Assembly: GCA_964019425.1 (NCBI GenBank)
Contig: OZ025790.1
Coordinates: 1,364,001 to 1,428,000, forward strand
Length of the DNA: 64,000 bases
DNA from: Flectonema sp. DT1601
Taxonomy: Eukaryota
Direction of reading: 5' to 3'
This document shows, piece after piece, positions 637-55,347 of the stretch. How positions within the stretch are numbered: the first letter of the stretch is position 1; each line of letters starts with the position of its first letter. The translations under genes and the position numbers were made by a program. The notes beneath the pieces were generated by a model. The model was given only the letters and a program-made list of their open reading frames with translations, was not told the DNA's origin and searched no databases.

Positions 637-730
637 TGATGAGAGAATAGAGGTAAGAGGAAAATAGGTTACTCTTGAAACCTAAATAGTTACTTCAAAA
701 GACTCCTCGACAGATGTTAAATTATCGGGC
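637..730 (+). repeat. Truncated, decayed copy of the repeat that carries the permuted hammerhead at 20832-20900
   Basis: TGATGAGAGAATAGAGGTAAGAGG...TTACTCTTGAAACCTAAATAGTTAC closely matches 20854-20910; 5' leader missing and cleavage-site region changed (AGGAA vs AGGTA). Confidence 0.7.
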
Positions 731-1701
731 AGTTGTTTTAATGTGATCCAAGACAGTTGGGGCATTTCTTGATTTACATTTGTGACGGCTAGATGGAGTG
801 GAGTGTAGCGAGGGAATAGCACTTTGCCACATACCAGCTGTTGGCTGTAAATGCAGGTTATCACGTTTCCTTTTTGTTTTAAAATTTTTATATCAATTTG
901 ACTTCACGGCAGTTTGTTTAGAACATGCGATTTTGTGTGGACGGAATCCAGTTATAATGATTCATGTCTAATTTGTTGAGTGTTAACCCTTGATTTATTT
1001 ATCCAAGTTCCCCCCCGCCGCTTCCTGGAGTTCGTTATAGTTTAGTTTTTTAGTTATTAATTTAAGTACTCATGAGTTTCATAAGAAAAAAACTGTTACT
1101 GGTAACATTGGCAGGTAGTGTTCAACTACTGTTCACGGCCTCCAGTGACATTATTTATTAAAAAGCATCTTCAATGATGCAATCGAGAGATTACCTTGTT
1201 CTTAATTACCCATTACAAGATGGGCTTTTCCGTTTTGGTTTTTTTTTTTTTTTTTTTTTCTCTCCATCTCGAAGACATGTTGCGTAACGTTACTTTTTAT
1301 AGTTCTGTTTTTTGATTGTCGCACAAAATGTGAGAATTTTTTTTTTTTTTTTTTTTTTGAATTTAATAAGTGTTGTAAGATCTAACAAGAACGTAAACGT
1401 CCTTGTTATCGGTTTGTTGTAAATCGGTTTCATGAACAAAACAAAACCCATGAACGAGTGTTATATGTTTTCTGTACGGTTTTGTAATTAGAGTTCAGTT
1501 CTTAAAAACTGTATTTATAAATACCATTGAGATATCAAAAATCTCCAAAAAAAAAAAAAAAAAAAAAATTGTGTTGTTTGTTTTGTATTATTTATTATTT
1601 ATTAGTTTTTTTTTTTTTTTTTGATTGATGTGACCTGGTTCTTTTTTTGTTTTCCAAGTCAACATTATCAAAAGGTTGTTGTTTTTAAACAAAATATATA
1701 T

Positions 1702-3469
1702 GAGGCGGTGCAGAAACCCCCCCCCCAATTTTTACCAGGCTATTCTGTGGGCACCTAATACCCAATCCGAGCTCACCACCCCACGAAAATACTATCCAAA
1801 AAACTCAAATCCGGTACTGGGGCATCCTCTAACTGCTCACCAGTTTCAAAATTCTATATTTTTTGACTGTTTCTGGTACTTTTGCCTTGTGTCTCTGTTG
1901 GTTGCCCTCAAAATACTCAAAAACCAGCTTAGCAGCTACATTGCAGAAATTTGTTTACACCTGGGTTCCTATGAAGACTGGAATGATAGGAACAGGAGAA
2001 GTGATGAGACAGGAGAATCATAGATCCCGTGAGAACTGCAGAGTACGATATCGGGTGGTGATTCTGAGTCACCCTTGCTGGCAGTGATGATTGAGCAATG
2101 TGAGCATGCTGTTCACAATAAGTACACCCTCAGGATTACTGGAGTTTTTCTAGAATCTATAGCCGCTTGAGGACGCTGCTACAAGCTCTATGTTCCAGTG
2201 GCTGGGGATAGCAGAAGTGAATAAGACTGGGATAGTAGTAGGAAAGGAATTGTGGAAGAATAGGGACAAGAAGGTGGAGTCAGTGGTTGCCTGTCAGTTG
2301 TAACACCTGACATGAAAAATCAGGTTCAATAAGAACTGGTAACCACTAGTGGTACCATAATATAAAACTCCTCCATGTATCAAAAAAAGGAGAGAGGCGG
2401 TTACTGTTGCTGTTGAAAACATGATGACCTCGTATCAACTAGTCGATAATAACTCCCCTCTAAAAGACACTATCTCATACACACAGTACTGTTCTCTACC
2501 TGGAGTTGAGTTCCAGCAGTTACGACGCTGTACGAATGTGTGCAACTACCGTCTCATTGACAAGAATCCATGAAAGAAGCTTACCTGCCCGGCATCTTCA
2601 GTATTCGCCACATGTATCTGTGATGTTGACAGACGTAATGGGTGGATCTCTGGGGCCTTCAACATCATCGTAACTTCCTTCTGGCGCTCATAAAGTCCGA
2701 AGCTGAGAAGCGAACAACAATGAGAGGAATTATTGAAATAGATTCTCACATTGGAGATAAGAGACATGTCAGGTGTATTGAGAAGATACATCTAATCCAT
2801 CCTGGTGACTATATCATGACTCTGGATTATAAAGAAAAGGGCTTCTAATGCCAGAAGGGACAAATTCCCCTTTCTATCAACAGGGGAAATAGTCTGCTTG
2901 GATGTGTACTACATGAGCAGTTTGGAACTGAGGTTCAGTGTGGCCATAACAACTTCCTACTCCCACACATCAACCAGAATGCGATAGTAACGTATCCGGT
3001 TATGAATAAGTTCTTCTTGATGTCTGAGAATGACAGGATGATTCACTATTGGGCTGATGCTGGTAGGCACCTTGAGAACACAACCGTCATCAGCCTGTTC
3101 TGTAAAATAAGTTAATCAGCTTGGGTTAACTTTTTCCCTAGTCGGCATGGCAAGTCCGAATGTGATCGACACTTTGGCAATATCACATCTGTGCTGACAC
3201 TCGAATCTAAATCGCAGGAAATCTGGGCCTTCAAGAAAAGCAAAATTTCAAACATAATTTCTACCAGTGCTACACAGCTTACAAGGCAAATGTTACTAGA
3301 AACAGTCAAAAAAGTGAAATTTTTAAACTGGTGGACAGTAAAAGGGTGCCCCAGTACCGGATTTGAGTTTTTTGGATACTATTTTCGTGGGGTGGTGGGC
3401 TCGGATTGGGTGTTAGGTGCCCACGGGATAGCCTGGTAAAAATTGGGGGGGGGGTTTCTGCACATCCTC
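1702..3469 (+). mobile_element. Decayed DNA transposon, Sola2-like, with ~190-bp terminal inverted repeats
   Basis: 1702-~1890 is the imperfect reverse complement of ~3280-3469; termini GAG...CTC; ATAT on both sides (1698-1701, 3470-3473); internal stop-interrupted frame with IMTLDYKEK (~2815) and IHYWADAGRH (~3041), resembling Sola2 DF(x)EN and IHYFSDG motifs. Confidence 0.75.
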
Positions 3470-3634
3470 ATATGTTTAAACCTTTGTTTACATAAGCGAG
3501 TCTATTGATACCTGTTTATTTGGTCAAATATCTGAGGACAAAAATCAATCTTTTTCAACAATAGGAATAAAAACCACCTTGAGAGAAACAACAAAAAAAA
3601 AACATGATATGATTTCCTCCATCATCGTTCCCAA

Positions 3635-13454: not shown

Positions 13455-14104
13455 GGTTCTTTTCGTTAGTTATTATTATTATTATTATTGTTTTTTTTTC
13501 TCTCTTTTTTTTTTCTGTGTTAGTTTTTTTTTAATGTAAGACTTACTAAGTAAACGAAGGATGGCTCACACAAAGATGGTTGTCTCTAAAATGGTATAAA
13601 TAGCCATATTGACATAATATAATGGTGGCGTGTCAGCCGTCTCTTGCACTGCCTGCTTTGTAAAATCTGGTGAACACACGTCTGTGAGTCACGCGAATAA
13701 CTGGGCTTTCCCAGGGATTTTGACTTCCCTGACTTTGAAAAAAAAAAAAAAAAAAAAAGAAACCGAGTAATCCCGTTGTTGAGAGGGCAAACGCGATGAG
13801 TAGGACAGGTCTGACACCGCAGTGTCCCGCTTACTTTATTCGCTCCGAAGAAGTATTTCTTTTTTTTTTTTCGTTGTCCTCATGAACAGAATGCTCACAT
13901 TGTTATCGCCAATCCATCAGTGTGAAAACATTGCTAAAAAGATCCTTGAGTCTCACTTAGGGAATGAAATCAATACAGTCATTTACACAGTCTTTTTTTA
14001 TTAAATACCTGACCTGTTTGGATTTCTTTGAATTCATCGCCTGAGGAGGAGGAGGTGCTATAAATTAACTATTACTTTATTATCTTTTTAGGGTTTTAAC
14101 ATAT

Positions 14105-20273: not shown

Positions 20274-20831
20274 CTTCATTGGAAATAAAGCATTCCCCCT
20301 AAGGAGGAAAAAGAAAATAAATACTACTTTTTTTTTTTTTTTTTTAAAAATATTTTTTTATTTTGTTATGTTTAGTTCTGTTGTGAAAATGTTCATAGAC
20401 TGTTTCTTGTCTGCGAACGGGTTGGCGCTTCTTGTAGTAGTTTTTCTGCCCCAGTATACATACAAAAAAAAAAAAAAAAAAAAAATAGAGGCAAAGAGAG
20501 GAGAATAGTGATACTCTGTAAACCGTAACATCACTTCACTGTATCCTTAACAGATAGTTTAAAAAAAAAAAAAAAAAATGCATCGTTTGCATCATTATAA
20601 TTATGTTAATATGATACAACACAGTTTGTATTCTTACAAAAAAAATCAAACTAATTTATCTCCCCCCTTCGCATCTTATACTTTCTACATTTATTGTAGA
20701 AGAGTGCTCCACTAGTAGTGCGCTACGAACTAGTAACAACAAGAAGAATGTTTTTATATATAAACATTATAACAAAGTAACTACATCCTAGTCTTGCTAA
20801 CTAAGATGCTTCAGTCACAACAGATGATTGA

Positions 20832-20900
20832 CTTACTTCTACACCATAACTGATGATGAGAGAATAGAGGTAAGAGGTATATGGATTACTCTCGAAACCT
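20832..20900 (+). ncRNA. Candidate hammerhead ribozyme with non-canonical strand order (family B)
   Basis: P0 CTTACTTCT 20832-40 / AGAGGTAAG 20866-74; stem I CCATA 20844-48 / TATGG 20880-84; CTGATGA 20850-56; stem II GAGAG-AAT 20858-65 / ATT-A-CTCTC 20885-93; GAAA 20894-97; stem III ACCT 20897-900 / AGGT 20875-78; GUA site at 20879; single extra bases at 20849 and 20857. Confidence 0.65.
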
Positions 20901-22068
20901 AAATAGTTACTTTAAAAGGCTAAGTTAAGCATCACACCTAGTCACTGTATCTCAGAACTAATGTTAAATTATCGTTATGTTGTCTATGATACAATGCATT
21001 TGTATTTTACGTACAAAATCAAACAGTTAACCCCCCTTCGCATGGAATTCTTACATGGCAAAGCAGGTTTTCTTTTAACCCGAACCAAATTTCTTTTTAG
21101 TTTTTTTCTTTTAGCTAGTTGTTTTTTTTTTTTTTTTTTTTTTTTGACTTACGTACCTCTACCAGTTAACTTACGAAGAAGAACCTGGGAAAAAAAAAAA
21201 AAAGAATGTCTCCGTGGTGGTTTGTGAAATCATTCAATATCTGGGCTGGTGCTGAGAAGTGCCTGTCTTTGTGGGTGTCGGTAGCCCCATGAGGACAACG
21301 TTCTCTGTGAGACACAAAAAAAAAAATCATTTTTTTCTTTTTCTCCTTTCCTTTTTTTGACAATAAATGGAGGACTTTTTTTTTTTTTTTTTTTTGCGAT
21401 GATAATCCTTTATTCACCAATCACATTGAAGTGACCTTTTCTTTTTTTATAGGTATATTTGCTTATAAAAAAAACTAACCAAAAAAAAAAAAGTCAGTAG
21501 CAAAAAGTATTTAAAAAAAAAAAAAAAGTCAGGTCTCTTCAATGAGTGACAGCTTGCCCCTGTCTGAAAACATACACGTTAGTGAACTTATTTTTATGTA
21601 GAGAATGAGAGAGGAGGGGAGGGGAAAAAAAAAAAAAAAACCCATTTGGCGGCTTGAGTCCCAATGATTTAACATGTGTTTTGTTATAAAGTATTAACTT
21701 GTTTTTTCTGTGTAGTTTTTTCGCCTTGTGTTATTTATTTTTTTTTTTTTTCATCCCTCACAAAGAAGAAAAATCATAATGTAGAGTTCCCAACGATCAT
21801 GCAGGGAGTGTGTAGCATTACCTTTAGTAAATTGTATCACAAACTTACTGATTTTTTTTTCCTCCTTTTTTTTTTTTTTTTTGATACAACCCGCCGGTCC
21901 ACCGGGCTCACGGCTATTTGAGTAATTGAATAACTTGATAACTGAATGACAACACGGAAAAAGAGATGTGTATGCAGCTAAGTTAGAAATATTAATTATA
22001 TCTGCTGTGTTTACATTCATGTTTCAGGGTGTCATTTTGTTTTTTTAAAAAAAATAAAATAAAATAAA

Positions 22069-23209
22069 ATGGTCAAATCATTAAATAAAAAGGCGAAGAG
22101 AATCCTTCTCACTCGACAGAAAATAAAGGACGCTCGTCCGCAGGGTAAGCAATCAGCTGAGAGTATGTTTTTTTTTTTGTTTTTTTTATAAATCTCCGTA
22201 ACCTTTTTTATTTTTTGCGTGACTGCCTGCGGCCATGGATTGCGTGGCCGGCAATCGCAGAGTTCCCATCCGCCACCAGGGCTCGGATGCCACCACCTCG
22301 GTCAAATTATCGCTCGTGTTTCAGCCGAGTAGGACAATAGCAGCCTGAGCCACAAGTGCTACACACATTAATTGGGGACGCTCGTCCTCTTTCAGCACCA
22401 TCCGGAGTGTTTGGGTTGACACCAAGCATTTTGTCGGGAGAAAAATAGATAACATTAAGACCTGAATAGTTTCTCCGTCTTCTTCGATGAAAAAAATGAA
22501 ATAAAATAAACTGCATCCTTTTTTTTTAAATTTTCTTTTATTTATATTATTATTATAAACCAAATCCCAATCAGCAAAAGCACTTCTAAAAGCGTCTGAA
22601 GAACTCGCTGCTAGTGGCAGTTCCAAAATCAAGTACAGAGGAAAAGCAAAAAAAGCAGCGACTAAAACCGTTGACGTCAGGGAAATATTAAAGCAAAAAC
22701 CATTAATACAGGGTGGAGGTGAGTTTGGAAAAGGGGTGGTGAATGAAAAAGTAAAAAACCTAATCAAGGAGACAACGGAGAAACAAATAATCTTAAAAAC
22801 TGCCCCGATGTCCAGATTGAAGAGAAAAGCAAAAAATGAATCAGAAATTGAACACTTTGGACATGTATTGAATTGTGATGAGTTTCAGAAGGATCCGTCT
22901 GCGGCTATCTTGCTGCACATTGAATCGACTGTCAATCCGCTAAAAATCGCAACAGGTAAGAACAGATACGACCCTGGAACCTATCGACTAGCTAAAAACA
23001 AAGAAAGAGCTGAAACACTTAAGAAAACTGGTTCCGCTGCAGCTCAGGCATCTCAACTTACATCATTCCAGTCAAATCTGATTGGGGGATCAAAACACAC
23101 ACCATACACTCCAAGAACAGCGAAAAAACCATCTTCAAAATCTAGTGGAAGAAAGGCAGGAGGAGGTGGAATAAAAATGGCAAACAAAACGTGGCTTAAA
23201 AATGATTGA
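22069..23209 (+). CDS. SLX9/FAM207A-like ribosome biogenesis protein, exons 22069-22162 and 22575-23209
   Basis: GTATGT...CAG phase-1 intron joins a basic N-terminus to the downstream frame; ESEIEHFGHVLNCDEFQKDPSAAILLHI resembles the SLX9 motif. Confidence 0.6.
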
Positions 23210-24932
23210 TAAAAACAAAAAAAACAAAAATGAACAAAATGAAATTATTTCAGTCAGCTACAGAAATCCATCTCATTCGTAGAAGCAATTGCCATGCAAA
23301 TGCCGTGAAATGTCAATCGAGGCTTTTCTTCATAAAAAGATTCATCGTTCCTTCATTTGTAATCTTACAATAACAGAAAGAGGGAGAGAGACACATTTGT
23401 AGAAATATTGAGGTAATCAGGTGTTGGTAATTGAGATGTTATCAGTCATCATTTATATTTTATTTAGGTTTTTTTAGTCATCAAATTCTAAGGTAACCAC
23501 TATCTGAATTGTTTTGGGAAATTTTTTTTTTTTAATTTTTTTTTTTTTTTAAACTTGTCAGCAATCTGCAATCCACCCCATCATGTGATGAAGTGTACTG
23601 AGGCTCTCCCTTTTGTGACAACAACTCATCATGGCCAGATGTTCCAGATAGCAATCTGAAACTGTTTTGTGTTTGAATATTTAAGTACCTGGCTGTTGAC
23701 CGTTTTCACGCAGATTATCACCTTTTCCTTTTTCTCTCTCCTAGGTTTCTTCTTTTAGTAGTAAAATGTGCTACGTTAACATATCTCGAGTGGTGATTCA
23801 CGCTCAGCGTCGGAATCTAATTAAACTGTTTTTGAGTTGAATTATATCAAATTAAAGCAACTTCATATTAATACACATGTTTATTTACAGTCGTTTGCTG
23901 CGCTGCCGCTGACAGTTAAAATTATCCAAGAGATTGTCGTTCCTTTTGAGATTGATAATACGGTTATCAGTTTTACCCAACTCGTGTGTTTTTGAGTACG
24001 TAATAGCATTATTAGTATCTCTCTCTGAGCATTTTTGACGCTCAGCAAAGGAGGTCGTTTTTGTTGCTTTTGTTAGTTGTCATCCTTGAGAAGTTAATAT
24101 CCGTAACTGTTCAAAGGAAGTGTTTTACAGGAAATCACAACCACAGAATATGTTGCACTATTCAGGAATCGAAAGCTGCTTTTCAGGGTTTTCCTTATTA
24201 CTTTACGATTGTTGCCGCCGTTTTGAACACTTCAGCAATTTTAATAAATATTTTTTGTTTTTCAGTAGATTACTAAAAAAAAGAGAAACGAATAAAGCAA
24301 CAATGCAAGTTTTTGTGACGTGTCCGGATTTGGGATTCCCTGCGGTGTCAGTCACAGTTGGTGCTGATTCTGTTGTGAGCGACGTGTTGACGACAGCGGC
24401 TGACGAGTGGGATGTCGATGCGGATAAAGTTGAACTGTCGTTCGCTGGTGATGCCCTTTGCGAAAGTAAGCGGTTAGTAGATTATGGAGTGGGTGCAAAC
24501 AGCGAGTTGGAAATACGAAAGAAGCTGGTTCGGATCTTCTGTAAAAACTGGTTTGTTGATGATAGAAAAAGGGAGAAGCTGCTTCTTTGGATGAAAGACC
24601 ACATTACGGAGGATTTATGTCTGGACACTCCCACATTCTCAGAAGATGGTTGCCTCACTATTGACAAAGGGTTGCTTCCTTCAGATGCCAAACGGATTTC
24701 CTTCCGCTATTCAAATTCCAACAGCACGCAGGTCATTTCACAAGTTACTTCTATTGGAGATATAGGTGTTTACAAATCACTTCTCTTGACCTTTCCGGTC
24801 TTAGTGGTGTCACCAGTATTGGAAGTAATTTCTTGTATAAGTGTTTACACGTCACTTCTGTTGAGTTTTCAGGTCTTAGTGGTGTTTCTAGTATTGGAGA
24901 TCATTTCTTGTCTGAGTGTTCACAAATCACTT

Positions 24933-25005
24933 GGGTAACGAAACTCGGATAGCGCGCCTCCTCGTGGTGTTGCCTGGATGCACCTTGTGTGTAACTAGAG
25001 TGCTG
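24933..25005 (+). ncRNA. HDV-like self-cleaving ribozyme
   Basis: P1 GGGTAAC 24933-39 / GTTGCCT 24969-75 with G1-U wobble; P2 AGCGC 24951-55 / GTGCT 25000-04; P3 GCC/GGT; L3 TCCTCGT; P1.1 CC / GG 24976-77; P4 TGCAC/GTGTA; candidate catalytic C24995 in J4/2 CTAGA. Confidence 0.85.
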
Positions 25006-25626
25006 ACGTATTGTTGTTGCTGTGTATTCTTTTACCCCCGTTTTATTTTCCGGTAGCCTGACCTTTAAAAAAAAAGGACAACATAGCAGAAGGTCAGGTG
25101 ATCCGGCCCGGGATACTCAGGCACCCAGAGCTCACAGGGGCCACCGGGTTTTTATTTTTTCCTTAGTGGCATGATTTCCCTTTACCCCCATTTCCTTCAA
25201 ACTTCCCCCGTTTAGTCTTTTCACGCATGGGGGGATTATAAGTTCAGGTCGCCTGAAATGTATTAACAGTATCAGCCCCGCGAGTTACTCGGGGAGCTCC
25301 CATGCAATGTGTGGAGAAAGAGGCCATCCCTCCCCCTACCTCTCTGCTTTACTACGTCGTTTTTTGTGTGTGGCATTTCTTTTCTTATATTCTTTTCTTT
25401 TCAATCTTGTTCCTTCACACGCAGTTGTTCGAGCGGTTGTGAACCACCTTGGGTCTCTTACGGTCTCCAAGCTACTGTTGTGCGAAGAAACAAATCTGTT
25501 GGTGCGGTGGCCTTCCGACGCCACCTGGACCGCAACTCGTTCACAGTGCCCTACCCGGTTCTCCACCGGACCGCCTGAGCGACGGGATCCATGGGATTCA
25601 AACCCCTAAACACTGGTTAATTTAAT
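24933..25626 (+). mobile_element. Short non-autonomous non-LTR retroposon (SIDE/RIME-like) with a 5' HDV-like ribozyme
   Basis: Absent from the paralogous locus; flanked by AATCACTT (24925-32, 25635-42), extendable to TGTTCA(CA/AC)AATCACTT; starts at the ribozyme G+1; ends in a TTAATTTAAT tail; 3' boundary uncertain (25626-25634). Confidence 0.75.
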
Positions 25627-26356
25627 TGTTCAACAATCACTTCCGTTAACCTTTCAGGTCTTAGTAGTGTTTCCAGTTCAGTTATTAAAAGACTTTCTCG
25701 GAAGTTACAAAAAAGGAACTGTTACGGTGACGTAGTCAAGTGGAGCTCAATCGGGTGTTGTAATTGAGGGGATGTGAGCAATATTATCTCATGTCATTTA
25801 TTTATTTCTCTACTCAATAATGTCAAAGTTTGTTACTGTTTTTACATTAAGAAGATCGTCACATCAATGTTTTAGAAGCAGATGCTCTCGGGGGGGCAGA
25901 CGCTTAAGAAGATTGAGAGTAGCAGATCATCACTCCACTTGGGTAGATAATACCACAGTCTGTGATGCTTTTAGATAAAAGATGTGTGTTCGCTCACACA
26001 TTCTTATCAAGTGTTTACTGGTTGCCATTGACCACCTTTTATTTTTAAAGTGTTCCCATTCCCTGGCATGGGTAATCACAAAAGCTAAACCCTGCTGATG
26101 TCCCTTCCCGAGAGGAAGTCTCCAACAGAAAGAGGCAGACAGTTTAGATACTAAGTAGTGACCTTGATAGTTTTATAATGCGAGTTAATTTACATTTTCT
26201 TTCTTCTTTGTCAAATGGCTGCATTTTTGAATCGATTCTTGATTTTTCACTTATTTTTTTTTTTTTTTCAAATATTGTAAAGAGTCTTGAGAGAAAGTTT
26301 GGACCCCATTATTTTATTTAGGAAAATTCTCCGTTGCCTACATAAAAAAAGTTGGG

Positions 26357-27746
26357 AAAACCTCTAATTCCACGTAAATGTTACTGAAATGTCCGATTTC
26401 AACATGAAAGTTTCCGAAACGGACAGCTCCACACAAAAAAGTTTCCGAAATGGACAGCTCCACACAAAATAGTTTCCGAAATGGACAGCTCCACACACGA
26501 AAGTTTCCGAAATGGACAGCAAAAAAAAATTTTTTTTTTTTTGTTGGCAAAATGAATTTTTTTTTTTTTTTTTCTCCGTTGCCTGCACCCAAAAAAACTT
26601 TTCGCTAGTGAACAACTTTTTTTTTCCCGCATAAAATTGCTATGGTAGGTAATTTCATTTTCGCTGTTCAGTAAACGGAAAGGTTTTTCTTTCGCTATTC
26701 ACTGAAAGTAATATTCGGATTTTTCGCTGTTCGGTAAGAAAACAAGGTTTTTCTTCGTTCCCAAATACACCGGGATGGCCGAGATGGGTTGGTTCTCAAT
26801 GAGGGAAGGAGTAATTTAAGGTAAAGCAAGTGCTGTAATTACAACTAATACGTGCAGGGCCTGAATCAACCTCTTAGTACTCCCTTTTCAACAGGTGACA
26901 TAATAATATATACTAGTAGCTCGCTAATCAAGTGAAAGTTAGTAGCGGAGTAGTTCGGCTGATTGAATCTTTAGAAAAGTGTTCCGTGGGCTACTTTCAC
27001 AGAAACTCCGAAAGGACAGTACTGTGTGGCTCAGTGAGGTGATCTCAGACTTGAGAACACTAAATGGTTTCGCCACTCCACAGCTATTCATGTCAAGCCC
27101 TAGGCCGCTGATCATGTATACTTGGTTTTTGCGCTCTCATACCTCATCTTGGTTGGTACGACGTGTAGCGGAGACTTGTCTCTGCGTAGGTGACCCGGCC
27201 CTGCACACATACCGAGCTGTATCACTCTTCTAAAGATTCATGATGTTGGATTTCTCTTGTCTCCTATCTGACGCTTGTGATGCACCTCTAGTATTTTAAT
27301 ACACTCTGAACTCTCATGGTTGTATGAGCTGACAAGTCGGGTGTCTCTACCCGAAATTCGTCCATCCCTATACCTGGCCCTGCACACATACCGAGCTATG
27401 CCGATCCAGGGGCGCAGTCAGGCCTAGGCCCAGGTCACACAGGTTCGGTGTATTTCACTCATCTCGTCGGATGGCCTTGCCTTACGTAGGAAAAAAATTT
27501 TTTTTTGGGAGAAAAAAAAATCCCCATGACTTTGGGCGACCCCGAAATGCACTGGCAGTAAGCTATAAAAAAAAAAAAAACAGCTGTCCATTTCGGAAAC
27601 TTTCGTGTGTGGAGCTGTCCGTTTCGGAAACTTTTTTGTGTGGAGCTGTCCATTTCGGAAACTATTTTGTGTGGAGCTGTCCATTTCGGAAACTTTCATG
27701 TTGAGATCGGACATTTCAGAAACTTTTTTGTGGAATTATAGTTTTT
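26357..27746. mobile_element. Foldback-like structure with ~165-bp inverted arms built from ~31-bp subrepeats
   Basis: 26357-26520 (AGTTTCCGAAATGGACAGCTCCACAC x4) is the reverse complement of 27583-27746; no TSD or transposase identified. Confidence 0.6.
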
Positions 27747-28785
27747 CGCTGTTGGGTACCAGCACTTTTTTTTTTTCTGAAAAAAAAAAAAAAAAAAAAA
27801 GGTTATGACCACCGAAATGGCCCAAAATGCACCAAACCTGTGGGAACTGGGGCTCCTCTTACCCGGTTTCCCAACTTGTGACCAAGTATTACTCATACAC
27901 CCATGACCGTAACTTAAAATACAAGAGGTGCATCACAAGCGTCAGACAGAAGTCAAGAGAAATCATTCTCCTAAATTTACTCGAAAGTCGGGGCAATTCG
28001 AACGTCAGCATTCACATTAGCAAGCAACCAGTCCTGAGTACTTAAAGAACCCAATCATTACGTGTATAAGCCACAGTCACACTTAGTATAACGTTAGTAC
28101 AGAGGACACGGATCTGGATCTGCTATGCAGGGAAGTGACTTGAACTCGTTCAACTAATTAATGTGTGCAGATACAAGCGCCGCGAATTGACGGGTCTGAA
28201 GTTATGCTTTCCGAAGAGAGCAACCACCCACGCGAGTATTATTTTGACGCTATAACCTGTGACTTTCAACACATAACAACCAGGGATAATTCTCAGTTAG
28301 GCCGCCGTCACCGTGAAGCTGCTACGAACATAACCCAACAAACAAGCAATTCCTCCAACTTTGTTCATATGTGCAGACACATAGTCAGCTACACACTTGG
28401 AGATTTTCTTAATCTCTTTAAGCTACTATGTTTCCGGCCATCTTAGAGATTGAGAATAAGAGTTCGTAGTAAAAGAGTAAAAGACTGGAGAGAAAAACGT
28501 TTGTGATTAGGCACCTGAACGTTTTACTGAACGAATCATCGTAGGCGAATTAATTTCAGCTATTTGCAAGAACTACAACAAACATTCTACGAAGAACATC
28601 AAAAGAAGAACCTGGCAGCAACGAGCAAAAGCCATCCCCGGATGGCTGGTTCTCTTTAACCGTGCTGGGGGTAGCAAGTAAACAAAAACTCAACAGGGAA
28701 ATCCACCAGTATGTAGATCCCAGTTCTATGGACTACCCAACAATAGCCGCATTCATTTTAAACAAAGCTGGTGCACCGCAGTGTC

Positions 28786-28859
28786 CCCCTTGCTTTCTTC
28801 GCTGAAGAGGGCTGGGTAAGGGGAATGGTCCAAAGAAAGATTGTTTTTAATCTTATCCC
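28786..28859 (+). ncRNA. Decayed compact permuted hammerhead (family A), GAAA segment lost
   Basis: P0 CCCCTTG 28786-92 / TAAGGGG 28817-23; stem I CTTTCTTCG 28793-801 / CAAAGAAAG 28831-39 (1 mismatch); CTGAAGA 28802-08; stem II GGGCTGGG / CTTATCCC (1 mismatch); TGGTC site 28826-30. Confidence 0.6.
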
Positions 28860-29271
28860 TTATCTCCTTTGATTCCATTATTGTTAGAGACATTCTCAAA
28901 GGAGCGACAGACCGGCGATTATCATTCGACCATTTTGACAGACATTTTAAACACCCAGAATATTGTTTTCACATGATTTTAAGAAAAACTCTGCAGGATA
29001 ATAATAATGATAACGACTGTACCATGGCACCCTCGAATGAAGGAATTCTATTCCTCACCAACACTAAGGAAAAGCGCAAGAAAGACGACTACAGCTCCGA
29101 TGAAGGAGAACTCGCACTCGTAATAAAACGAACAGATGTAGAAGAGATAGAACGCTGATCAAAAGCAAATATATGCTAGCCCGTCCTGGCGAGCTCCGAT
29201 GGACATTAAGGAATCAGTTCTTTTGAAATAGACCAATTGATGGATCCGATTTATTAATTAACTGGAATGAG

Positions 29272-29340
29272 GTCCCAAGGAACTTACTGATGAAGGCCTA
29301 AGAGGGACAAGTAGTATAAGATTAAGGCTCCTGAAACTAC
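29272..29340 (+). ncRNA. Candidate hammerhead ribozyme with non-canonical strand order and intact core (family C)
   Basis: P0 GTCCC 29272-76 / GGGAC 29304-08; stem I CTTA 29283-86 / TAAG 29317-20; CTGATGA 29287-93; stem II AGGCCT 29294-99 / AGG-CT-CCT 29325-32; GAAA 29333-36; stem III ACTAC 29336-40 / GTAGT 29311-15; GUA site at 29316. Confidence 0.7.
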
Positions 29341-29453
29341 GTATTCCACAGTGAATTATGGAACAGCAGAACAATGTGTTTTTATATTTCTTTCTTTTTT
29401 TATATTTTAATTTAGTGCACTTTTTTATAATAAACTCATATTCCAACTAAGAA

Positions 29454-30094
29454 CATGAGTGGAACCTTCTTATTTTTTTATAATTCATCCCCCCATGATA
29501 TATTTTATATAAGGGGACACCGCAGTGTCCCCCCTGCTTTCTTCGCTGAAGAGGGGCTGAGCATGAGTGGAACCTTGTTATTTTTTTATTATTCATCCCC
29601 CCATAAACATAACTCAGCCCCACTCATTTTGTTGGTATTCCGCGTTCACTGATATATTTTATATAAGGGGACACCGCAGTGTCCCCCCTGCTTTCTTCGC
29701 TGAAGAGGGCTGAGCATGAGTGGAACCTTGTTATTTTTTTATTATTCATCCCCCCATAAACATAACTCAGCCCCACTCATTTTGTTGGTATTCCGCGTTC
29801 ACTGATATATTTTATATAAGGGGACACCGCAGTGTCCCCCCTGCTTTCTTCGCTGAAGAGGGCTGAGCATGAGTGGAACCTTGTTATTTTTTTATTATTC
29901 ATCCCCCCATAAACATAACTCAGCCCCACTCATTTTGTTGGTATTCCGCGTTCACTGATATATTTATATAAGGGGACACCGCAGTGTCCCCCTTGCTTTC
30001 TTCGCTGAAGAGGGCTAACATGAGTGAAACCTTGTTATTTTTTTATTATTCATCCCCCCATAAACATAACTCAGCCCCACTCATTTTGTTGGTA
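29454..30094 (+). repeat. Tandem array of ~153-bp units (108, 153, 153, 151 bp and a partial unit)
   Basis: Units start CATGAGTG at 29454, 29562, 29715, 29868, 30019; each of the first four contains the hairpin GGGGACAC-CGCA-GTGTCCCC and CTTTCTTCG-CTGAAGA-GGGCT. Confidence 0.95.
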
Positions 30095-30099
30095 TACGT

Positions 30100-30600
30100 A
30101 CGTACGACACCTACGCCCAGCAGCAGCAGTCTTCCCACTACGAAGGACTACAACAGGAGCTGCAGCGCGAGAGAGAGGAGAAGAGCGAGCTACGGGATGC
30201 TCCGAACCCTCCAACAACAACTGGACGGATTGAGAGAAGAACTCAAGGCCCAACATGCTGAGGCGAAGAGGCAGCAGGAAACGGCGGGACGGGAAGCGAG
30301 AGAGATGCAAGAACGTTTCTTGCTAGAACTCGAAGCGCAACACGGAAGTGAAGCAAACGCCACCGGTGAAGCTGCCTCAAGACGGTATGAGGGAGCTGGA
30401 CGCCTCACGCAAGAAGCTGATGAAAGAAATCAATGAAGGGCAGGTAGCCGGACGATCGGCCATCCAAGAGCAGATGGTCCGAGAGGCCGGGAAACTGGCG
30501 CAGACTCAGAAGAGTTGGGAGAACGCAGCACGCAAGGAGCGATCCAGGGTGGATAACCTCTCGCTGGCACCGGAGTATTTGCCAGAGGGATCACGAAGAT
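30100..30600 (+). pseudogene. GC-rich frameshifted coiled-coil coding fragment, possibly from a mobile element
   Basis: Two overlapping helical-looking frames (LRTLQQQLDGLREELKAQH..., MRELDASRKKLMKEINE...); composition differs from the flanks. Confidence 0.4.
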
Positions 30601-30605
30601 TGCAA

Positions 30606-30646
30606 TGGTCCGAAGAAAGATTGTTTTTAATCTTAGCCCGAAACCA
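30606..30646 (+). ncRNA. Cleavage-site/GAAA half of the family A permuted hammerhead
   Basis: TGGTC 30606-10; CGAAGAAAG 30611-19 is the exact complement of CTTTCTTCG in the array; CTTAGCCC 30632-39 pairs with GGGCTGAG or GGGCTAA; GAAACCA 30640-46 pairs with TGGT. Confidence 0.7.
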
Positions 30647-33056: not shown

Positions 33057-33074
33057 AGCAGTAGTTGTTAAGAT

Positions 33075-33244
33075 TGCCTAGATAGGACGAAGCCGAGGGA
33101 AGCCATTGCGGTGTTGACGTGCAAATCGCTCGTCAAAGCTGGGTATAGGGGCGAAAGACCCATCGAACCATCTAGTAGCTGGTTCACTCCGAAGTTTCCC
33201 TCAGGATAGCTGGAACCATAAAAGGAGTTACGCCTAATGATTAC
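33075..33244 (+). rRNA. Isolated, internally deleted fragment of cytosolic LSU rRNA (pseudogene)
   Basis: TGACGTGCAAATCG...TGGGTATAGGGGCGAAAGACCCATCGAACCATCTAGTAGCTGGTTC...CCGAAGTTTCCCTCAGGATAGCTGG is conserved eukaryotic 28S sequence; no other rDNA nearby. Confidence 0.9.
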
Positions 33245-44235: not shown

Positions 44236-45225
44236 ATGGTTTGGACTTCAGACCCGGCAGCATATTCTAAAATAATATTGCATTCAATAAGGTATCCTTC
44301 TCAGAGTGTGTCAGGGTTCCTTATTGGAGAGAGCGTTAAGAAAGACGGAGAATCAGTTCTTCACATTTCAGATGTGTTACCACTTTGCCATACCAACGTT
44401 CAGCTCTTACCAAATGCAGAAGTAGGATTTTCCGTTGCGAAGGCAGTTGCTAAGGAGAAGAAGATGAGAGTTGTATGTTTTTTTTTTATTTTGCATTTAA
44501 CAAGTATTGTAAGAACGAAAAAAAGAATGTTGGGCAGCACACGTAAACTTCCTGTAGCTTTATCAGTTTAAAGTCGGTTTGCGGGTTTTCGTGACACAAA
44601 CAAAGCATCAACAAGTGTTATATTGCTATTTTCTGTATGGTATAAGATAAAGCCAATTCTTTTTTTTTTTTTTTTTTTAATCCAACATCACAAACACAGA
44701 TTGGGTACTACTACGCTCCTCAACTCCTTGAAGAGCGGACCACCAGCATGACTCCTTTCGCTGAGAAGATTATGAAAATGTTTGTGTTTTTTATTTCGTT
44801 TTTTGGTTCAAACAAAAACAAAATAATTCACTGTGTTTTCCTAAGAGTGACAACGAAAGAAATTTTCCATTTTATCTTCCCCGAAAAAAACAAAAAAAAA
44901 AAATAAAAAAAAAATTAGGATCACTGACGGAGCTGGAAAACAATCCACGATGGCAATTCAAATAGTAAACAACCGAGTCAGTGTATCCGGAAAAGAATGC
45001 CCACTGAAGTTCTTTGATGGAAACGATTTAAAGGGTGGAAGAACCAACGAATCTGGTTGCTTCAAATTATTCAGCAAAGGCGAAGAAATACAATACTCCT
45101 CTTTCGCTCCTATTCTAGAGAGTCACATAAAGAAGGGATTGGTGTCAAAATTGATCGACTTTGAAGCGCATTTGGATAATCCGAAATTAGACTTTACTAA
45201 CGACAGCATTAATAAAGTTTTTTAA
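44236..45225 (+). CDS. EMC8: ER membrane complex subunit EMC8/9 (UPF0172), exons 44236-44472, 44700-44779, 44919-45225
   Basis: AYSKIILHSIRYP...VSGFLIG...DVLPLCH, IGYYYA, LIDFEAHLDN...N motifs; two introns restore the frame. Confidence 0.85.
44493..44660 (+). repeat. Dispersed ~170-bp repeat, here intronic; other copies at 48067-48229 and 62451-62542, diverged copies near 190-300 and 1365-1480
   Basis: TTAACAAGTATTGTAAGAACGAAAAAGAATGTTGGGCAGCACACGTAAAC...AGCTTTATCAGTTTAAAGTCGGTT shared by the three main copies. Confidence 0.85.
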
Positions 45226-47067: not shown

Positions 47068-48959
47068 GATTGTTTTTTGAGTCGCCTCAAACGAAACTCC
47101 CTTTTTACTAACTAATGTTTATGTTGACATCTTGATAGTGTCCAAGTCTCTGCTGTTTTCGGCGAACACTTGTGTGACGCTTCACCTGTCTTACTGGCCA
47201 CGTGACTTCTTTCTTCATTTCTCCCCCTGTTTTCTTTGATTAACAACTACAAATATTTTCTCAGTCGGGTACTTGATATTAATTTTGTTTCTTAATACCA
47301 AAGTCAAAGTTTCACCCCCTTCTTCTTTCTTGAAAGACTAAAATGGAAACCTATAGTTGTTATTCCTCATGTTGATCGCTTGTGGGCTGGGCTGCGAAGC
47401 CGAATTTTCTTTTCTTTTTTTGTTGTTTCCACCACAACACGGTTTTATAAGGAGGTTAATAATCTATTTTTTTTTTTTTTTTTTCTCCTTCCTCCTGTGC
47501 AGTTATCTCCTTGTTAGGGATCGCCAAGTTTTTTTTTTTTTTTTTTTTAGGGAAAAAGGAAGTTTCTGAATTCGAATGTTTAAAAGCGTTTATTCAACAA
47601 AACCCCACGAACACTTAGACGTAAATACTTTTTGTTCGCATTGAGACGACGTGAAGGACGTTGCAAGTATTGTTTGATGGGCAGTGAATGCGTTTTTTTT
47701 TCTTTTTCTGTTTCTTTTCTTTTTTTCTTATTTTTTTTGAATAGGGAATTTTCGTGTTCAGTAATACTGTCGCGATCAACAAAAAAAAAGGCTTTTTATC
47801 TGAATAGTTTTTTCCTATGGGATCCGTTTTTTTTTTCCTCTTTTTTTGCAAACGTCTACGATGAGAACTGGTGGGCTCTACCTTTGCAAAAAACGTCTGG
47901 TTATTTATTTTGAGACTTTTTTATCTTTTTTTTTCTTCTTGTGAAGTGTGTTGTATTGGGGGACAATTAAAAATATAAAAAGGGTGGTTTTTTTTTTTTA
48001 TTCTTAATGAGGTAGATTTAATCGTGGTTTTTTTTTCTTCTTTTTGTTTATTTTTTTTATTATTTTGCATTTAACAAGTATTGTAAGAACGAAAAAGAAT
48101 GTTGGGCAGCACACGTAAACCTCCTTTAGCTTTATCAGTTTAAAGTCGGTTCACGAGTTTCGTGACACAAACAAAAAATCACAGTTGTCATATTATTATT
48201 TTCTGTATAGTCGAAGATAAAGCCAATTCTTTTTTTTTTTTTTTGGGAATTCCTGCTTGGCAAAAAAAAAAAAAAATATAAACGAAATAAAATAAAATAA
48301 AATAAAGCAATTATCAACTGTTGAGATCTAAGAAGGAAAAAAAACCTTTTATCCCCCAACTCTGCTGTCCCATACCAAACCAATACGAGGATTTCTTTTT
48401 TGTGTTTGTTTTAAGTTACTTCTTGTCTTCTTAATGTTCTCCTTTACTGTAAAACTTTGTTCTTTTTTTTTTCAAAGTTTCGGGGAGATAATTTTTTTTT
48501 TTTTTTTTTGTTCTTCCAACAATAAGTTTTTTTTTTTTTTTTTTGTACCCACAAAAAACCTATTGTTCGGTTGAAAGAGCAACTGACTCTATATTAATAT
48601 TAACTGTTGCGTGCCAACAAAAAGTGTGTTGTTGAATAAAAAAAAAATATCATTTCATTTCATTTCATTTCTTTTAATTTTTTTTTTGCACCGACACAAA
48701 AAGTCGGAGAAGAAACTATTCAGATTAAGAGCCGTTTTATTTATTATATCAAAATTTTATCTATTTTTTCCCCTGAACTTTTTCATGTATTTCTGTCCGC
48801 GATCAACAAAAAAAAAAAAAATGACTGGTGTTGACCTGCATATAAAAGTAGACCCCCCTGAGCCAGTTAACCCTTAAGGCTGCTGCTGTTTCTTATTTTA
48901 TTTTATATGTTTTTTTTAAATCTCAGTAACAAAAATATAGCAAAAAAAGAAAAAAAAAA

Positions 48960-50024
48960 ATGACTGAAGCCCTCCCGATTAGAGTAGCTGAGTTCTACAG
49001 TGGAATTGGTGGTGCCCGTACTGGAGTTGAGAAATGGGCAGCTGAAAGTAACACCGAGATTGTAGTAGTTGCCAGCTACGACATGAATGACCAGGCAAAC
49101 AGAGTTTACGAATCAGTGTTCAAACACAAAGTCAGATCTAAGGGGATTGAACATTTAAAAATTGAGGAAATAAAAAAATGCAAAGCCGACATGTGGCTGT
49201 TAAGCCCTCCATGTCAACCTTTTACCTTAGGAGGAGGAAGACGTTCAGCTACTGGCGATAGTGATAACCGATGCAAGTCTTTCACTCACATTGTAAAAAT
49301 ACTTTCTGATCTCTCTGAGGAGTCTCAACCACGCTGGATAATAATTGAAAATGTGAGTCAGTTTGCTGAATCTGAGACGGTTTTGGCATTCAAAAATGTC
49401 CTCGTCGCTGCTCACTATAATCATAAAGAAGTAATTACGTCTCCCATATCTGTGGGGATTCCGTACCAGAGAAAAAGGTATTATTTATTATGTTCAAAAA
49501 CATCTGAAATTGAAGATTTTTCGAATTTCTTAAGCCGAACTCGTCCAGACCTTTCAAAACCACCATCCCTCAGCAGCTTTTTAAAATCTCGTCAGGTTGA
49601 CATCGAGATTGGTCATAAAGATGAAAAATTACTTGTCCCGGAATCGATCTTCAATGATCATAAAACTTTCATGTTTGACGTAGTATCTGGTAACAGTACG
49701 TCGTGTTCATGTTTTACTAAGGGATACTCAAAGAACTATAAAGGTTCAGGAAGCCTTTTGCTACTACCAAACCCAACCTCATCACTGAAACGATCAAAAC
49801 CAGACGAAGAGTCGATGTGGATATCTGGAGCAGAAATCATTTCATCTGGTGCGCTAATTAGATACTTCTCTCCTGATGAGTTGTTGGCTCTGCATGGTTT
49901 TCATGACTTGTTTAGATTCCCAGAAGGGATGACAAACATTCAGAAATATCGATTGATTGGTAACTCTCTCTCATGTGATGTTCATCAAATGCTTACAAAG
50001 TGTCTGATAGAAGGAAAGGAATAG
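48960..50024 (+). CDS. DNMT2: DNMT2/TRDMT1 tRNA cytosine-38 methyltransferase
   Basis: EFYSGIGG, SPPCQPFT, IENV, QRKRYY, DNMT2-type CFTKGY...GSGS, RYFSPDE, YRLIGNSL. Confidence 0.92.
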   Translation: MTEALPIRVAEFYSGIGGARTGVEKWAAESNTEIVVVASYDMNDQANRVYESVFKHKVRSKGIEHLKIEEIKKCKADMWLLSPPCQPFTLGGGRRSATGDSDNRCKSFTHIVKILSDLSEESQPRWIIIENVSQFAESETVLAFKNVLVAAHYNHKEVITSPISVGIPYQRKRYYLLCSKTSEIEDFSNFLSRTRPDLSKPPSLSSFLKSRQVDIEIGHKDEKLLVPESIFNDHKTFMFDVVSGNSTSCSCFTKGYSKNYKGSGSLLLLPNPTSSLKRSKPDEESMWISGAEIISSGALIRYFSPDELLALHGFHDLFRFPEGMTNIQKYRLIGNSLSCDVHQMLTKCLIEGKE

Positions 50025-51751: not shown

Positions 51752-52895
51752 TGTTATATTTACACACATTTTTCACTTGATTTTGTTTGAGTGTAATATG
51801 ATCAAGATTACATTTCCCCCCGACAGCACATATGGCAATTTTTCAGCACGTAGGTGAAACCTACACTCTGTCATTGAATAACTCGATTACTGAATGACAA
51901 CACAGATGTGTATGCAGCTAAGTTAGAAACATTTACTGTAACCATAAATAACACGGTGTATAAAAAATTTGGAGTATAACAACTTTGGATATAATAAAGA
52001 TGGTGGATTTGGCCATTTTTTGGCGATTTGGAGACTTTTTATACGCCATGATATTTATAGTTACAGTATTATAATGTTAAGTATTTACATCAATTACAGA
52101 GTGTTTACCAATACTAACATTACCTTAGTCACACACATAAGCGTGAATTGAATAGCCCAAAAAAGGACAACATATCCACAAATAACGTTGTTTAGCTGGT
52201 TGCACACCAGTCTCTAGAGATGGCTGTTGATGCAGTCTAAACGAGAACTAGGGAGTTCCCTTCTCCAATCTTTGTAACAGCCTAGCCATACTTAACTTCA
52301 GTTACAGTTGGCAATTCAAGTTTTGGGTTCTTTATCATAAGCTGTTCTTGCACACAAAAAACCAGCCATGATAGCATTTTTGTAATGCTACTATCCACGC
52401 TTCAAAAGCTCCAACAAGTCCCAGCAAGTCTAACTGAGTATCATGTTCATCATGTCAAGTTCGAATCCCGGTGAAGGCTATAAGTGACTCTCTTTTAGTG
52501 ATAGGCAGCCCCCTGAACGAAGCTGTGAGGGAGTTTTAGAGATTAAGACTGTACTCTACACAGGATCTGTTTTTGAGTACATTCGTGTTGGAGTTTACAT
52601 AACCCAGCACAGGCCAAAGCTGGATGATGACGTAGACCAGCACTGTGCCGCATGAGCATTGCGATGATTGCATACGATGCGTCAAGTTTCACCTTGACAA
52701 GCACAGTCTGGTCACTTACAGCTTTTTTAATAATCAGGTGGGTCTTCCTTTGAAAGTTGACTTTTCAAATTTTATGATTTGAATTAAAATAAAGTAAATT
52801 ACTCGTCCAGTTCGATTCCCCGTGAAGTATAGTTTTCTTCCTAGAATAAAGGATCCGACGTCTGCGGGGTAAGTGAAGTTGTCCTTTTCAAGTTC

Positions 52896-53085
52896 ATACC
52901 TTCTCGGCCTTTTGGCTAAGATCAAGTGTAGTATCTGTTCTTATCAGCTTAATATCTGATATGACACCTTGTGTGTCAACGATATTATAGTAATTTCTTG
53001 TTGGGGTGTCGGGTAGCTTGGGGCAACTCAGGTCCGGCACAAGTGTTGCCCTGGAGCTGCACCACATCCAGGAGTGGCACACCCA
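52896..53085 (+). ncRNA. U2: U2 spliceosomal snRNA
   Basis: ATACCTTCTCGGCCTTTTGGCTAAGATCAAGTGTAGTATCTGTTCTTATCAG 5' end; stems IIa/IIb; Sm-like AATTTCTTG; 3' stem-loop CCTGGA-GCTGCACCACA-TCCAGG; followed by TTTTT. Confidence 0.95.
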
Positions 53086-53456
53086 TTTTTAATTAAAGTA
53101 GAAGACAAAGTCTCTTTTGAAATTTGAGAAGTTTCAGCACCGTGAAGAAGAAAAATCTCTTCTTCACATAGTACTGAATGCTGTGTTTCCCAATTAATTG
53201 TGAGGGAAATTTCCCAGATTTGGTTCCGTTGGAGTCACAATGAATGTGATTCGACGCAACTGTTGATCGAGAGTTCTGGTCAGTCGTTCTCTCGAGTTCT
53301 GATCAATCTACTGCACTATTCAAGAATCGAAAGCTGCTTTTCAGTTTTTCCTTATTACTTTACGATTGTTGCCGCCGTTTTGAACACTTCAGCAATTTTA
53401 ATAAATATTTTTGTCTTTCAGTAGATTACTAAAAAAAAGAAGCAAATAAAACAACA

Positions 53457-54599
53457 ATGCAAGTTTTTGTGACGTGTCCGGATTTAGGACTCCCTGCGGT
53501 GTCAGTCACAGTTGGTGCTGATTCTGTTGTGAGCGACGTGTTGACGACAGCGGCTGACGAGTGGGATGTCGATGCGGATGAAGTTGAACTGTCGTTCGCT
53601 GGTGATGCCCTTTGCGAAAATGAGCGGTTAGTAGATTATGGAGTGGGTGCAAACAGCGAGTTGGAAATGCGGAAGAAGCTGGTTCGGATCTTCGGTAAAA
53701 ACTGGTTTGTTGATGATAGAAAAAGGGAGAAGCTGCTTCTTTGGATGAAAGACCACATTACGGAGGATTTATGTCTGGACACTCCCACATTCTCAGAAGA
53801 TGGTTGCCTCACTATAGACAAAGGGTTGCTTCCTTCAGATGCCAAACGGATTTCCTTCCGCTATTCAAACTCCAACAGCAAGGTCATCTCACAAGTTGCT
53901 TTTATTGGAGATAATTTCTTGTCTCGTTGTTCACAAATAAGTTTTGTTGACCTTTCCGGTCTTAATAGTGTTTCTAGTATTGGACATGATTTTTTGGCTC
54001 TCTGTTTACACATCACTTCTGTTGACCTTTCCGGTCTTAGTGGTGTCACCAGTATTGGAAGTAGCTTTTTAGCTCACTGTATACAAATAAGTTTTATTGA
54101 CCTTTCAGGTCTTAGTAGTGTCACCAGTATTGGAAGTGATTTTTTGTCTAATTGTTCACACATCACTTCTCTTGACTTTTCAGGTCTTAGTAGTGTCACC
54201 AGTATTGGGAATTATTTTTTGTATTGTTCACATATCACTTCTCTTGACCTTTCCGGTCTTAGTGGTGTCACCAGTATTGGAAATACTTTTTTAGCTAACT
54301 GTAAACAAATTAATTTTGTTAGCCTTTCAGGTCTTAGTGGTGTCACCAGTATTGGAAATCATTTCTTGTCTAAGTCTTCAGAAATCACTTCACTTGACCT
54401 TTCGGGTCTTAGTAGTGTCACCAGTATTGGAGATGATTTTTTGTTTCGTTGTTCAAGAATCACTTCTCTTGACCTTTCCGGTCTTAGTAGTGTTTCCAGT
54501 TCAGTTATTAAAAGAAGTACTTGGGAGTTACAAAAAAAAACTGTTACGGTGACACAGTCAAGTGGAGCTCAATCGGGTGTTGTAATTGAGGGGATGTGA
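53457..54599 (+). CDS. Ubiquitin-like N-terminal domain + BspA-type leucine-rich repeats
   Basis: About eight ~24-aa repeats LSGLSSVTSIGxxFLxxCxxITSLD; N-terminal LSFAGDAL...LVDYGV UBL-like pattern. Confidence 0.85.
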   Translation: MQVFVTCPDLGLPAVSVTVGADSVVSDVLTTAADEWDVDADEVELSFAGDALCENERLVDYGVGANSELEMRKKLVRIFGKNWFVDDRKREKLLLWMKDHITEDLCLDTPTFSEDGCLTIDKGLLPSDAKRISFRYSNSNSKVISQVAFIGDNFLSRCSQISFVDLSGLNSVSSIGHDFLALCLHITSVDLSGLSGVTSIGSSFLAHCIQISFIDLSGLSSVTSIGSDFLSNCSHITSLDFSGLSSVTSIGNYFLYCSHITSLDLSGLSGVTSIGNTFLANCKQINFVSLSGLSGVTSIGNHFLSKSSEITSLDLSGLSSVTSIGDDFLFRCSRITSLDLSGLSSVSSSVIKRSTWELQKKTVTVTQSSGAQSGVVIEGM

Positions 54600-55242: not shown

Positions 55243-55347
55243 ATACCTTCTCGGCCTTTTGGCTAAGATCAAGTGTAGTATCTGTTCTTATCAGCTTAAT
55301 ATCTGATATGACACCTTGTGTGTCATATCAGATATTATAGTAATTTC
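55243..55347 (+). pseudogene. 3'-truncated U2 snRNA copy
   Basis: Identical to U2 for the first ~83 nt, ends within the Sm site; upstream flank partly shared with that of the full gene. Confidence 0.9.

Follow-up and report, generated by a model that had tools for sequence, protein, structure and literature searches.

The stretch analysed here, hereafter the window, comprises 64,000 nucleotides (64 kb) of Flectonema sp. DT1601 (assembly GCA_964019425.1, contig OZ025790.1, positions 1,364,001 to 1,428,000). Two complete motifs with the parts of a hammerhead ribozyme lie in it outside long open reading frames (ORFs), together with a further copy and flanking repeats of one of them and the pieces of a third version (Table 1). 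We refer to the three sequences as families 1 to 3, and to the complete motifs of families 1 and 2 as loci 1 and 2. Every copy is on the gene-sense (+) strand. A first-pass annotation of this DNA had announced one architecture in three unrelated sequences; two complete motifs bear this out, while the third exists only as broken pieces.

Table 1. Hammerhead motifs, their pieces and the associated repeats in the window
Feature	Positions	Strand	Basis or remark
Family 1 type-CSG hammerhead motif, complete (locus 1)	20832-20900	+	sequence reading and descriptor
Left copy of ~80-nt imperfect direct repeat flanking family 1 motif	20594-20674	+	alignment
Right copy of ~80-nt imperfect direct repeat flanking family 1 motif	20968-21043	+	alignment
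Second family 1 copy, 90% identical, 5'-truncated within CUGAUGA	637-704	+	alignment; predicted inactive
Family 2 type-CSG hammerhead motif, complete (locus 2)	29272-29340	+	sequence reading and descriptor
Family 3 copy: P0, CUGAAGA, P0', AA linker, GUC	28786-28859	+	sequence reading; predicted inactive
Family 3 site and GAAA half	30604-30646	+	AA linker, stem III', GUC, stem I', AUUG, U-rich spacer, stem II', GAAA, stem III
Tandem array, 153-nt unit x 3.9, 98% matches	29496-30095	+	repeat finding
Family 3 CUGAAGA block of the last array unit	29996-30018	+	perfect complement of 30611-30639, ~590 nt apart
Frameshifted internal fragment of multi-copy coiled-coil ORF (P0122-P0127)	30076-30590	+	between both family 3 halves
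Decayed 5' piece of family 3	13813-13851	+	alignment

Locus 1 reads, from its 5' end, P0, stem I, CUGAUGA, an inserted U, stem II, P0', stem III', GUA, stem I', AUUA, stem II', GAAA and stem III. P0 (20832-20841/20865-20874) has 10 bp, one of them G-U, and adjoins stem III with a linker of 0 nt. Stem I (20844-20849/20880-20884) consists of five Watson-Crick (WC) pairs with A20848 bulged, stem II (20858-20862/20889-20893) of five WC pairs, and stem III (20875-20878/20897-20900) of four, with U16.1-A15.1 counted in. CUGAUGA occupies 20850-20856, directly followed by the inserted U20857, and GAAA occupies 20894-20897; the predicted cut in the GUA site falls after 20879. At locus 2, P0 has five WC pairs, and the four WC pairs of stem I are followed by an A.A mismatch and two further pairs. 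CUGAUGA lies here at 29287-29293 and GAAA at 29333-29336. Stem II is formed by three plus three WC pairs on either side of a 2-nt bulge, with A10.1-U11.1 present and a 5' strand that is palindromic in sequence. An AA linker precedes stem III (five WC pairs), AUUA follows stem I', and the cut is predicted after 29316, again in a GUA site. In both motifs the helices are rich in WC pairs, stems I, II and III adjoin the core (with insertions of up to 1-2 nt tolerated), and stem I is imperfect. The core itself is complete at both loci, with CUGAnGA, GAAA, U16.1-A15.1 and H17 intact, and is broken in the copies at 28786 and at 637, where A stands in place of U16.1. The three cut sites named in the first-pass annotation (3' of 20879, 29316 and 30610) agree with these predicted positions.

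The hammerhead has been divided into blocks C, G and S, and six block orders have been named, one of them type CSG (PMC10085705; this and the other publications are cited from the accessible parts of their text). The first-pass annotation had noted that the strands at these loci run in the order CUGAnGA, site, GAAA (its A, C, B), which is not a circular permutation, and that an extra helix, P0, is present; both observations hold at loci 1 and 2. Its further claim, that the architecture is new, fell to the literature: the order, P0 and the short linker included, is that of type CSG, described by Eckert, Friedrich, Weinberg and Weinberg (2023; PMC10085705) from CSG-1 and CSG-2, two similar unique sequences (five in their table) in soil metagenome DNA. 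In their Fig. S10 the CSG 5' leader pairs just after stem II, and a linker of 2 nt leads on to stem III; the legend of Fig. S18 raises the same short-linker problem. Architecture, extra helix and short-linker puzzle are all, as far as the accessible text goes, already published there. CSG-1 and CSG-2 constructs of 77-78 nt cleave at the predicted site during transcription, at 0.004 and 0.026 per min. The same text places no type CSG in a known organism, and its authors rate the evidence for biological relevance weaker than that for type SGC (PMC10085705). Judged by sequence, loci 1 and 2 agree with type CSG in every feature and are genuine examples of a type that is known but very rare; we are highly confident that they are type-CSG hammerheads by origin. 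It also seems probable from our analysis that one or both of the complete copies would cleave in vitro.

We searched the window with a descriptor that covered all six block orders, with and without P0, using locally shuffled windows as the control. The window held two matches to CSG with P0 (loci 1 and 2) and none to the other five orders. Shuffles gave a mean of 0.024 such matches per window, and at least two in 1 of 975, figures that are optimistic because a first version of the descriptor missed locus 1 and was then loosened, and thus tuned on these loci. The enrichment that the first-pass annotation had proposed to look for, against shuffles and other strand orders, is accordingly present with this qualification. 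With P0 left out, the shuffle mean rose to 0.19, with at least two CSG matches in 18 of 975. A relaxed search allowing one core substitution returned no further complete motif in the window, and in shuffles it averaged 0.051 matches (at least two in 1/963). Circularly permuted hammerheads (the CGS, GSC and SCG orders) gave no descriptor match in the window. That standard models miss the motif was also confirmed, as no hammerhead was among the 24 Rfam matches (E<=5). Two published CSG descriptors, re-implemented from the accessible text, likewise had no match in the window on either strand; therefore, these variants would have been missed. Nested folding recovered P0 and stem III at loci 1 and 2, while stems I and II, as pseudoknots, are outside its reach.

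The helix sequences had been called unrelated between the loci, and our alignments support this: families 1 to 3 have nothing in common beyond the core, with 329, 347 and 506 of 1000 shuffles reaching the pairwise alignment scores. Aligned against shuffles, families 1 and 2 also showed no common flanking sequence. All four helices differ in sequence between families, with pairing kept. Two short features recur outside the core and the helices, both noticed by eye and post hoc. AUUA after stem I' is common to families 1 and 2 and to both published CSG sequences, family 3 having AUUG instead. Just ahead of stem III', CSG-1 and families 2 and 3 have AA, and CSG-2 has CA (PMC10085705). In family 1, AA stands by eye at the same distance from stem III' but is predicted to be paired. 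The shared AUUR and the A-rich joint point either to a contact specific to this type or to shared ancestry.

Family 3 has no contiguous complete copy in the window. Its copy at 28786-28859 has one mismatch in each of stems I and II and lacks GAAA and stem III. The site and GAAA half farther downstream has a predicted cut after 30610 and no adjoining CUGAnGA block. Each unit of the tandem array holds the family 3 CUGAAGA block (29546, 29700, 29853 and 30005) behind a GC-rich hairpin, and the block in the last unit would pair with the downstream half through nine WC pairs in stem I and seven in stem II. Because a fragment of the multi-copy ORF separates these perfectly complementary halves, the sequence suggests that they are one interrupted copy. 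Read in this way, family 3 is a third version of the motif that now exists only as broken and nested pieces. Each 153-nt unit, taken at 29650-29802, also contains two pairs of perfectly complementary segments, 7-8 nt long, that cross one another (a, b ... a', b'), a being the family 3 stem II strand, and a GC-rich hairpin of 10 bp by which the P0 leader would be sequestered (fold z -2.8).

As the best explanation of the whole we propose self-cutting type-CSG motifs, likely in short non-coding mobile repeats that free RNA from a multi-gene transcript, a reading that we hold to be reasonably probable. P0 would close a first hairpin, whose loop holds the stem I 5' strand, CUGAnGA and the stem II 5' strand, and stem III would close a second, with UH, stem I', the AUUR linker, stem II' and GAA in its loop; the helices are read from sequence and their arrangement in space is inferred. 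Following the published type, the two loops would pair through stems I and II, rebuilding the normal core with the cut after H17, and P0 may substitute for the contact between loops I and II. The repeats would be transcribed by read-through and then cut at the ribozyme. The freed RNA would probably be circularised and copied to DNA by a reverse transcriptase (RT) supplied in trans, as in the retrozymes without long terminal repeats (non-LTR retrozymes), whose tandem units of 150-450 bp are expressed as circles (PMC7229834).

The repeat behaviour of the motifs enters here. The window holds two copies of family 1, six pieces with the family 3 CUGAAGA block, the array of 153-nt units, and the direct repeats around locus 1, with a period of ~370 nt and an alignment score of 66 against 35 for the best of 1000 shuffles. 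Families 1 and 3 are thus short dispersed or tandem non-coding repeats with a hammerhead, which suggests that both reside in retrozyme-like mobile repeats. The motif extends ~48 nt to the 5' side of the cut. If the element's RNA merely started at the cut, these would be lost, and their retention favours a circular or tandem template, as in non-LTR retrozymes (PMC7229834; bioRxiv 10.64898/2026.07.22.740005). For a retrozyme-like role as such, we put the chances slightly below even.

Several results weigh against this explanation. For the fold, whole-motif nested folding was not better than in shuffles (z -1.0 at locus 1, +0.1 at locus 2), the stem I duplex is weak (-4.0 and -0.8 kcal/mol, respectively), the CUGAAGA block of family 3 pairs with itself (-10.2 kcal/mol), and variation within families includes pairing-breaking changes alongside compatible ones. 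For mobility, copy ends lie off the cut sites: the copy at 28774 extends 29 nt past the site, and the piece at 30604 begins 7 nt before it. The 153-nt array units have neither a GAAA block nor a site block, and hence no complete ribozyme per unit. Family 2 was found in only one copy within the 64-kb window and without a terminal repeat (its alignment score was equalled or exceeded in 711 of 1000 shuffles). No RT or GIY-YIG domain was detected by Pfam in 25 long and 81 short frames, nor upstream of locus 2, where the frames at 27800-29160 were searched only as separate pieces. The descriptor, finally, also accepts some G-U-rich coding DNA if this has first been selected for the core words: in a follow-up scan of outside loci, 9 of 20 passed the stems, all nine in open frames, and for this reason a descriptor match alone is not proof. 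Loci 1 and 2 differ from these in their WC-rich helices and their position outside the long ORFs.

This last point, and the tuning of the descriptor after the loci had been seen, are what could be said for chance matches in AT-rich intergenic DNA. Against chance stand the rarity of two or more matches in shuffles (1/975 and 1/963), the WC-rich helices, and the non-core details that agree with the published type in its accessible text, and we regard it as a negligible prospect. Dead relics, that is, remnants of old insertions whose type-CSG ribozymes were active in the past but have lost the ability to fold or cut, would better fit the broken state of most copies (637, 13813, 28786 and four tandem units), the bulge or mismatch and weak energies of stem I at loci 1 and 2, and the divergence of the direct repeats around locus 1. 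However, the core and the four helices are complete at both loci, and natural hammerheads tolerate one-nt insertions next to CUGAnGA, with a U insertion allowed in the published descriptor (PMC10085705); we consider the relic account improbable. The first-pass annotation had thought dimer or tandem assembly possible given the short linker. A fold that works only as a dimer or by long-range pairing, e.g., of 29996-30018 with 30606-30646, would accord with the 0-2 nt between P0 and stem III, with family 3 halves that are perfectly complementary across ~590 nt, with the palindromic stem II strand of locus 2, and with animal hammerheads, some of which act as dimers (PMC7229834). Yet a partner encoded elsewhere does not seem to be needed, since single CSG constructs with an equally short linker already cleave while they are being transcribed (PMC10085705), and the family 3 halves, which adjoin each other at 28786-28859, owe their complementarity to descent from a single interrupted copy. 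A strictly dimeric or long-range fold is, in our view, very improbable.

A different question is which element carries the motifs. They could be type-CSG hammerheads in the untranslated ends of a Penelope-like retroelement, or of one resembling long interspersed nuclear elements (LINE-like), with an ORF that is decayed or located somewhere else; the pieces would then be truncated ends. Penelope-like elements have hammerheads in their pseudo-LTRs and occur as partial tandems with a 30-40-bp tail (PMC8557442, PMC11167929), and in trypanosomes the first 77 nt of the L1Tc/ingi elements contain a ribozyme (PMC12278014). In the window, ~1.3 kb of broken reading frames (27800-29160) precede locus 2, and the fragment of a multi-copy ORF lies between the family 3 halves. 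Nevertheless, no RT or endonuclease match was found in the frames searched, the multi-copy ORF is without a Pfam family or named relative (P0123 yielded no more than three unnamed relatives, plus one weak lead in the Atlas, 0.76), and an insertion in a leucine-rich repeat (LRR) gene at 24933-25620 has no sequence in common with the ribozyme families. We therefore rate the retroelement explanation as unlikely, and keep self-cutting motifs in short non-coding mobile repeats as our preferred reading. Within the broken frames, 28162-28540 had also been considered as the decayed C-terminal half of a Penelope GIY-YIG domain in two frames, by its likeness, judged by eye, to the pattern of that domain; with the pieces searched separately, its only match was to a low-complexity repeat protein, and this candidate is unsupported.

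Relatives were sought outside the window in viral, metagenome and prokaryote collections rather than in eukaryote genomes. A family 3 word had no occurrence in viral contigs, and a family 1 word had none in metagenomes. Generic CSG patterns matched at least 120 viral loci (further patterns, 18 and 2), 11 in metagenomes, and 8 loci in prokaryote genomes. Among the matches listed, 159 loci were evaluated; three passed the stem test and one of them (L075) also had a P0-like helix. This last locus was rejected as a CSG member: its stem I has only two WC pairs, and the motif lies inside a frame that is open across the whole locus. No outside homologue was thus found among the listed viral, metagenome and prokaryote matches, a weak negative given that a metagenome pattern fitting CSG-1 failed to return CSG-1 itself.

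The setting of the motifs looks like diplonemid nuclear DNA, because the Fcf1 protein encoded in the window matches a EukProt protein of Flectonema neradi at 99% identity, with 73% of the query covered. Its next-best relatives are those of Diplonema ambulator and Rhynchopus euleeides (80%), followed by Namystynia (73%) and Artemidia (72%). Flectonema we take to be a diplonemid genus, and the host is likely a marine protist. Pfam profiles identified protein genes for kinesin, Fcf1, acyl-CoA dehydrogenase and BspA-LRR proteins, and a C-5 cytosine methyltransferase gene (PF00145) lies at 48960-50024. All 18 ATG-initiated ORFs of at least 230 aa in the window are on the + strand; genes of diplonemids are reported to form same-strand clusters that are likely co-transcribed (PMC10161547). 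Rfam returned two U2 matches above the cut-off, one U3-like match below it, and one fragment of large-subunit (LSU) rRNA. The LSU fragment, 116 nt long and isolated, directly follows the kinesin ORF at 33063-33178, and scattered 28S pieces have been described in Diplonema papillatum (PMC10161547). The U3-like RNA (below the Rfam gathering score) adjoins a full U2 gene, and a second U2 copy is kept only in its 5' half (52545-53087 and 55229-55437).

Other repeats in the window were observed apart from the ribozyme families. The BspA-LRR gene at 24305-25700 is split by the ~690-nt insertion at 24933-25620, which sits at a fixed position of the 75-bp LRR repeat ('...ITW'). P0122 and P0127 switch from LRR to the multi-copy coiled-coil ORF at that same repeat position, and a close BspA-LRR paralogue at 53312-55041 is without the insertion; this pattern suggests an element with the LRR repeat as its target. 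Long terminal inverted repeats (TIRs) of ~190 bp, 89-90% identical, mark two elements at 1698-3473 and 26356-27747, the second with 31-bp subrepeats; these elements resemble miniature inverted-repeat transposable elements (MITEs) or Mutator-like elements (MULEs). A short dispersed repeat family with a T-run at its start occurs at 170-263, 1331-1394, 44471-44674, 48044-48244 and 62431-62560, where the descriptor finds no hammerhead. At 63142-64000, a 12-bp tandem repeat of ~63 copies, with an open frame on the minus strand, continues past the window end.

What appears to be new here is type CSG in an identifiable eukaryote, in three sequence-unrelated versions that share AUUR after stem I' and that the published descriptors, in their accessible form, miss. 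Three such versions in 64 kb of one genome would supply the independent helix replacement that has been missing for this type, would place the topology in a named eukaryotic lineage with a source of many more copies, and would make the shared AUUR linker a testable candidate for how a short-linker topology folds. Where several genes are transcribed as one unit, self-cleavage of an RNA in sense orientation could also affect the ends of adjacent mRNAs. We tentatively suggest, with less than even confidence and less than for the retrozyme-like role, that diplonemid genomes host several independent retrozyme-like mobile RNA families built on type CSG, with the AUUR linker and an A-rich joint between P0 and stem III, making tertiary contacts, as hallmarks. 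If so, this would be the first biological setting for the topology, and its rarity would be due to strict descriptors and unsearched protist genomes. The literature searched, which mostly left subscription papers outside, held no later report of type CSG in its accessible text (PMC13725137 and PMC10761166 included), and it described neither natural hammerheads nor Penelope-like elements from diplonemids.

Among known systems, the non-LTR retrozymes are, like families 1 and 3, short AT-rich non-coding repeats with a hammerhead, both dispersed and in tandem (PMC7229834; bioRxiv 10.64898/2026.07.22.740005), and the unit sizes found here (153 and ~370 nt) fall within their range. They differ in carrying type I hammerheads, in having been described in animals, and in keeping the hammerhead complete in consecutive units, whereas the 153-nt units hold only the CUGAAGA block. 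Penelope-like hammerheads are likewise self-cleaving motifs of a mobile element in eukaryotes, but with a different topology, and no RT or endonuclease was found linked to the motifs here (PMC8557442, PMC11167929). Pr77, the ribozyme of trypanosome L1Tc/ingi elements, comes from euglenozoan mobile elements but is of a different class, being like that of hepatitis delta virus (HDV; PMC12278014). Type SGC (HRIMA-1 and variants) has another block order and is represented by 583 metatranscriptome sequences linked to hairpin-ribozyme RNAs (PMC10085705). CSG-1 and CSG-2 share with loci 1 and 2 the C-S-G order, all core nucleotides, P0, the short linker, a length of ~66-69 nt and an origin in DNA. 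The published sequences have a P0 of 7-8 bp and a 2-nt linker, compared with 10 bp and 0 nt in family 1, 5 bp and 2 nt in family 2, and 7 bp and 2 nt in family 3. Locus 1 is further set apart by its bulged stem I, U insertion and 0-nt linker, and locus 2 by A10.1-U11.1 and a bulged stem II. Moreover, the helix sequences are, by eye, unrelated to those of CSG-1 and CSG-2, and whereas these two come from soil metagenomes, loci 1 and 2 lie in what appears to be the nuclear genome of an identifiable eukaryote.

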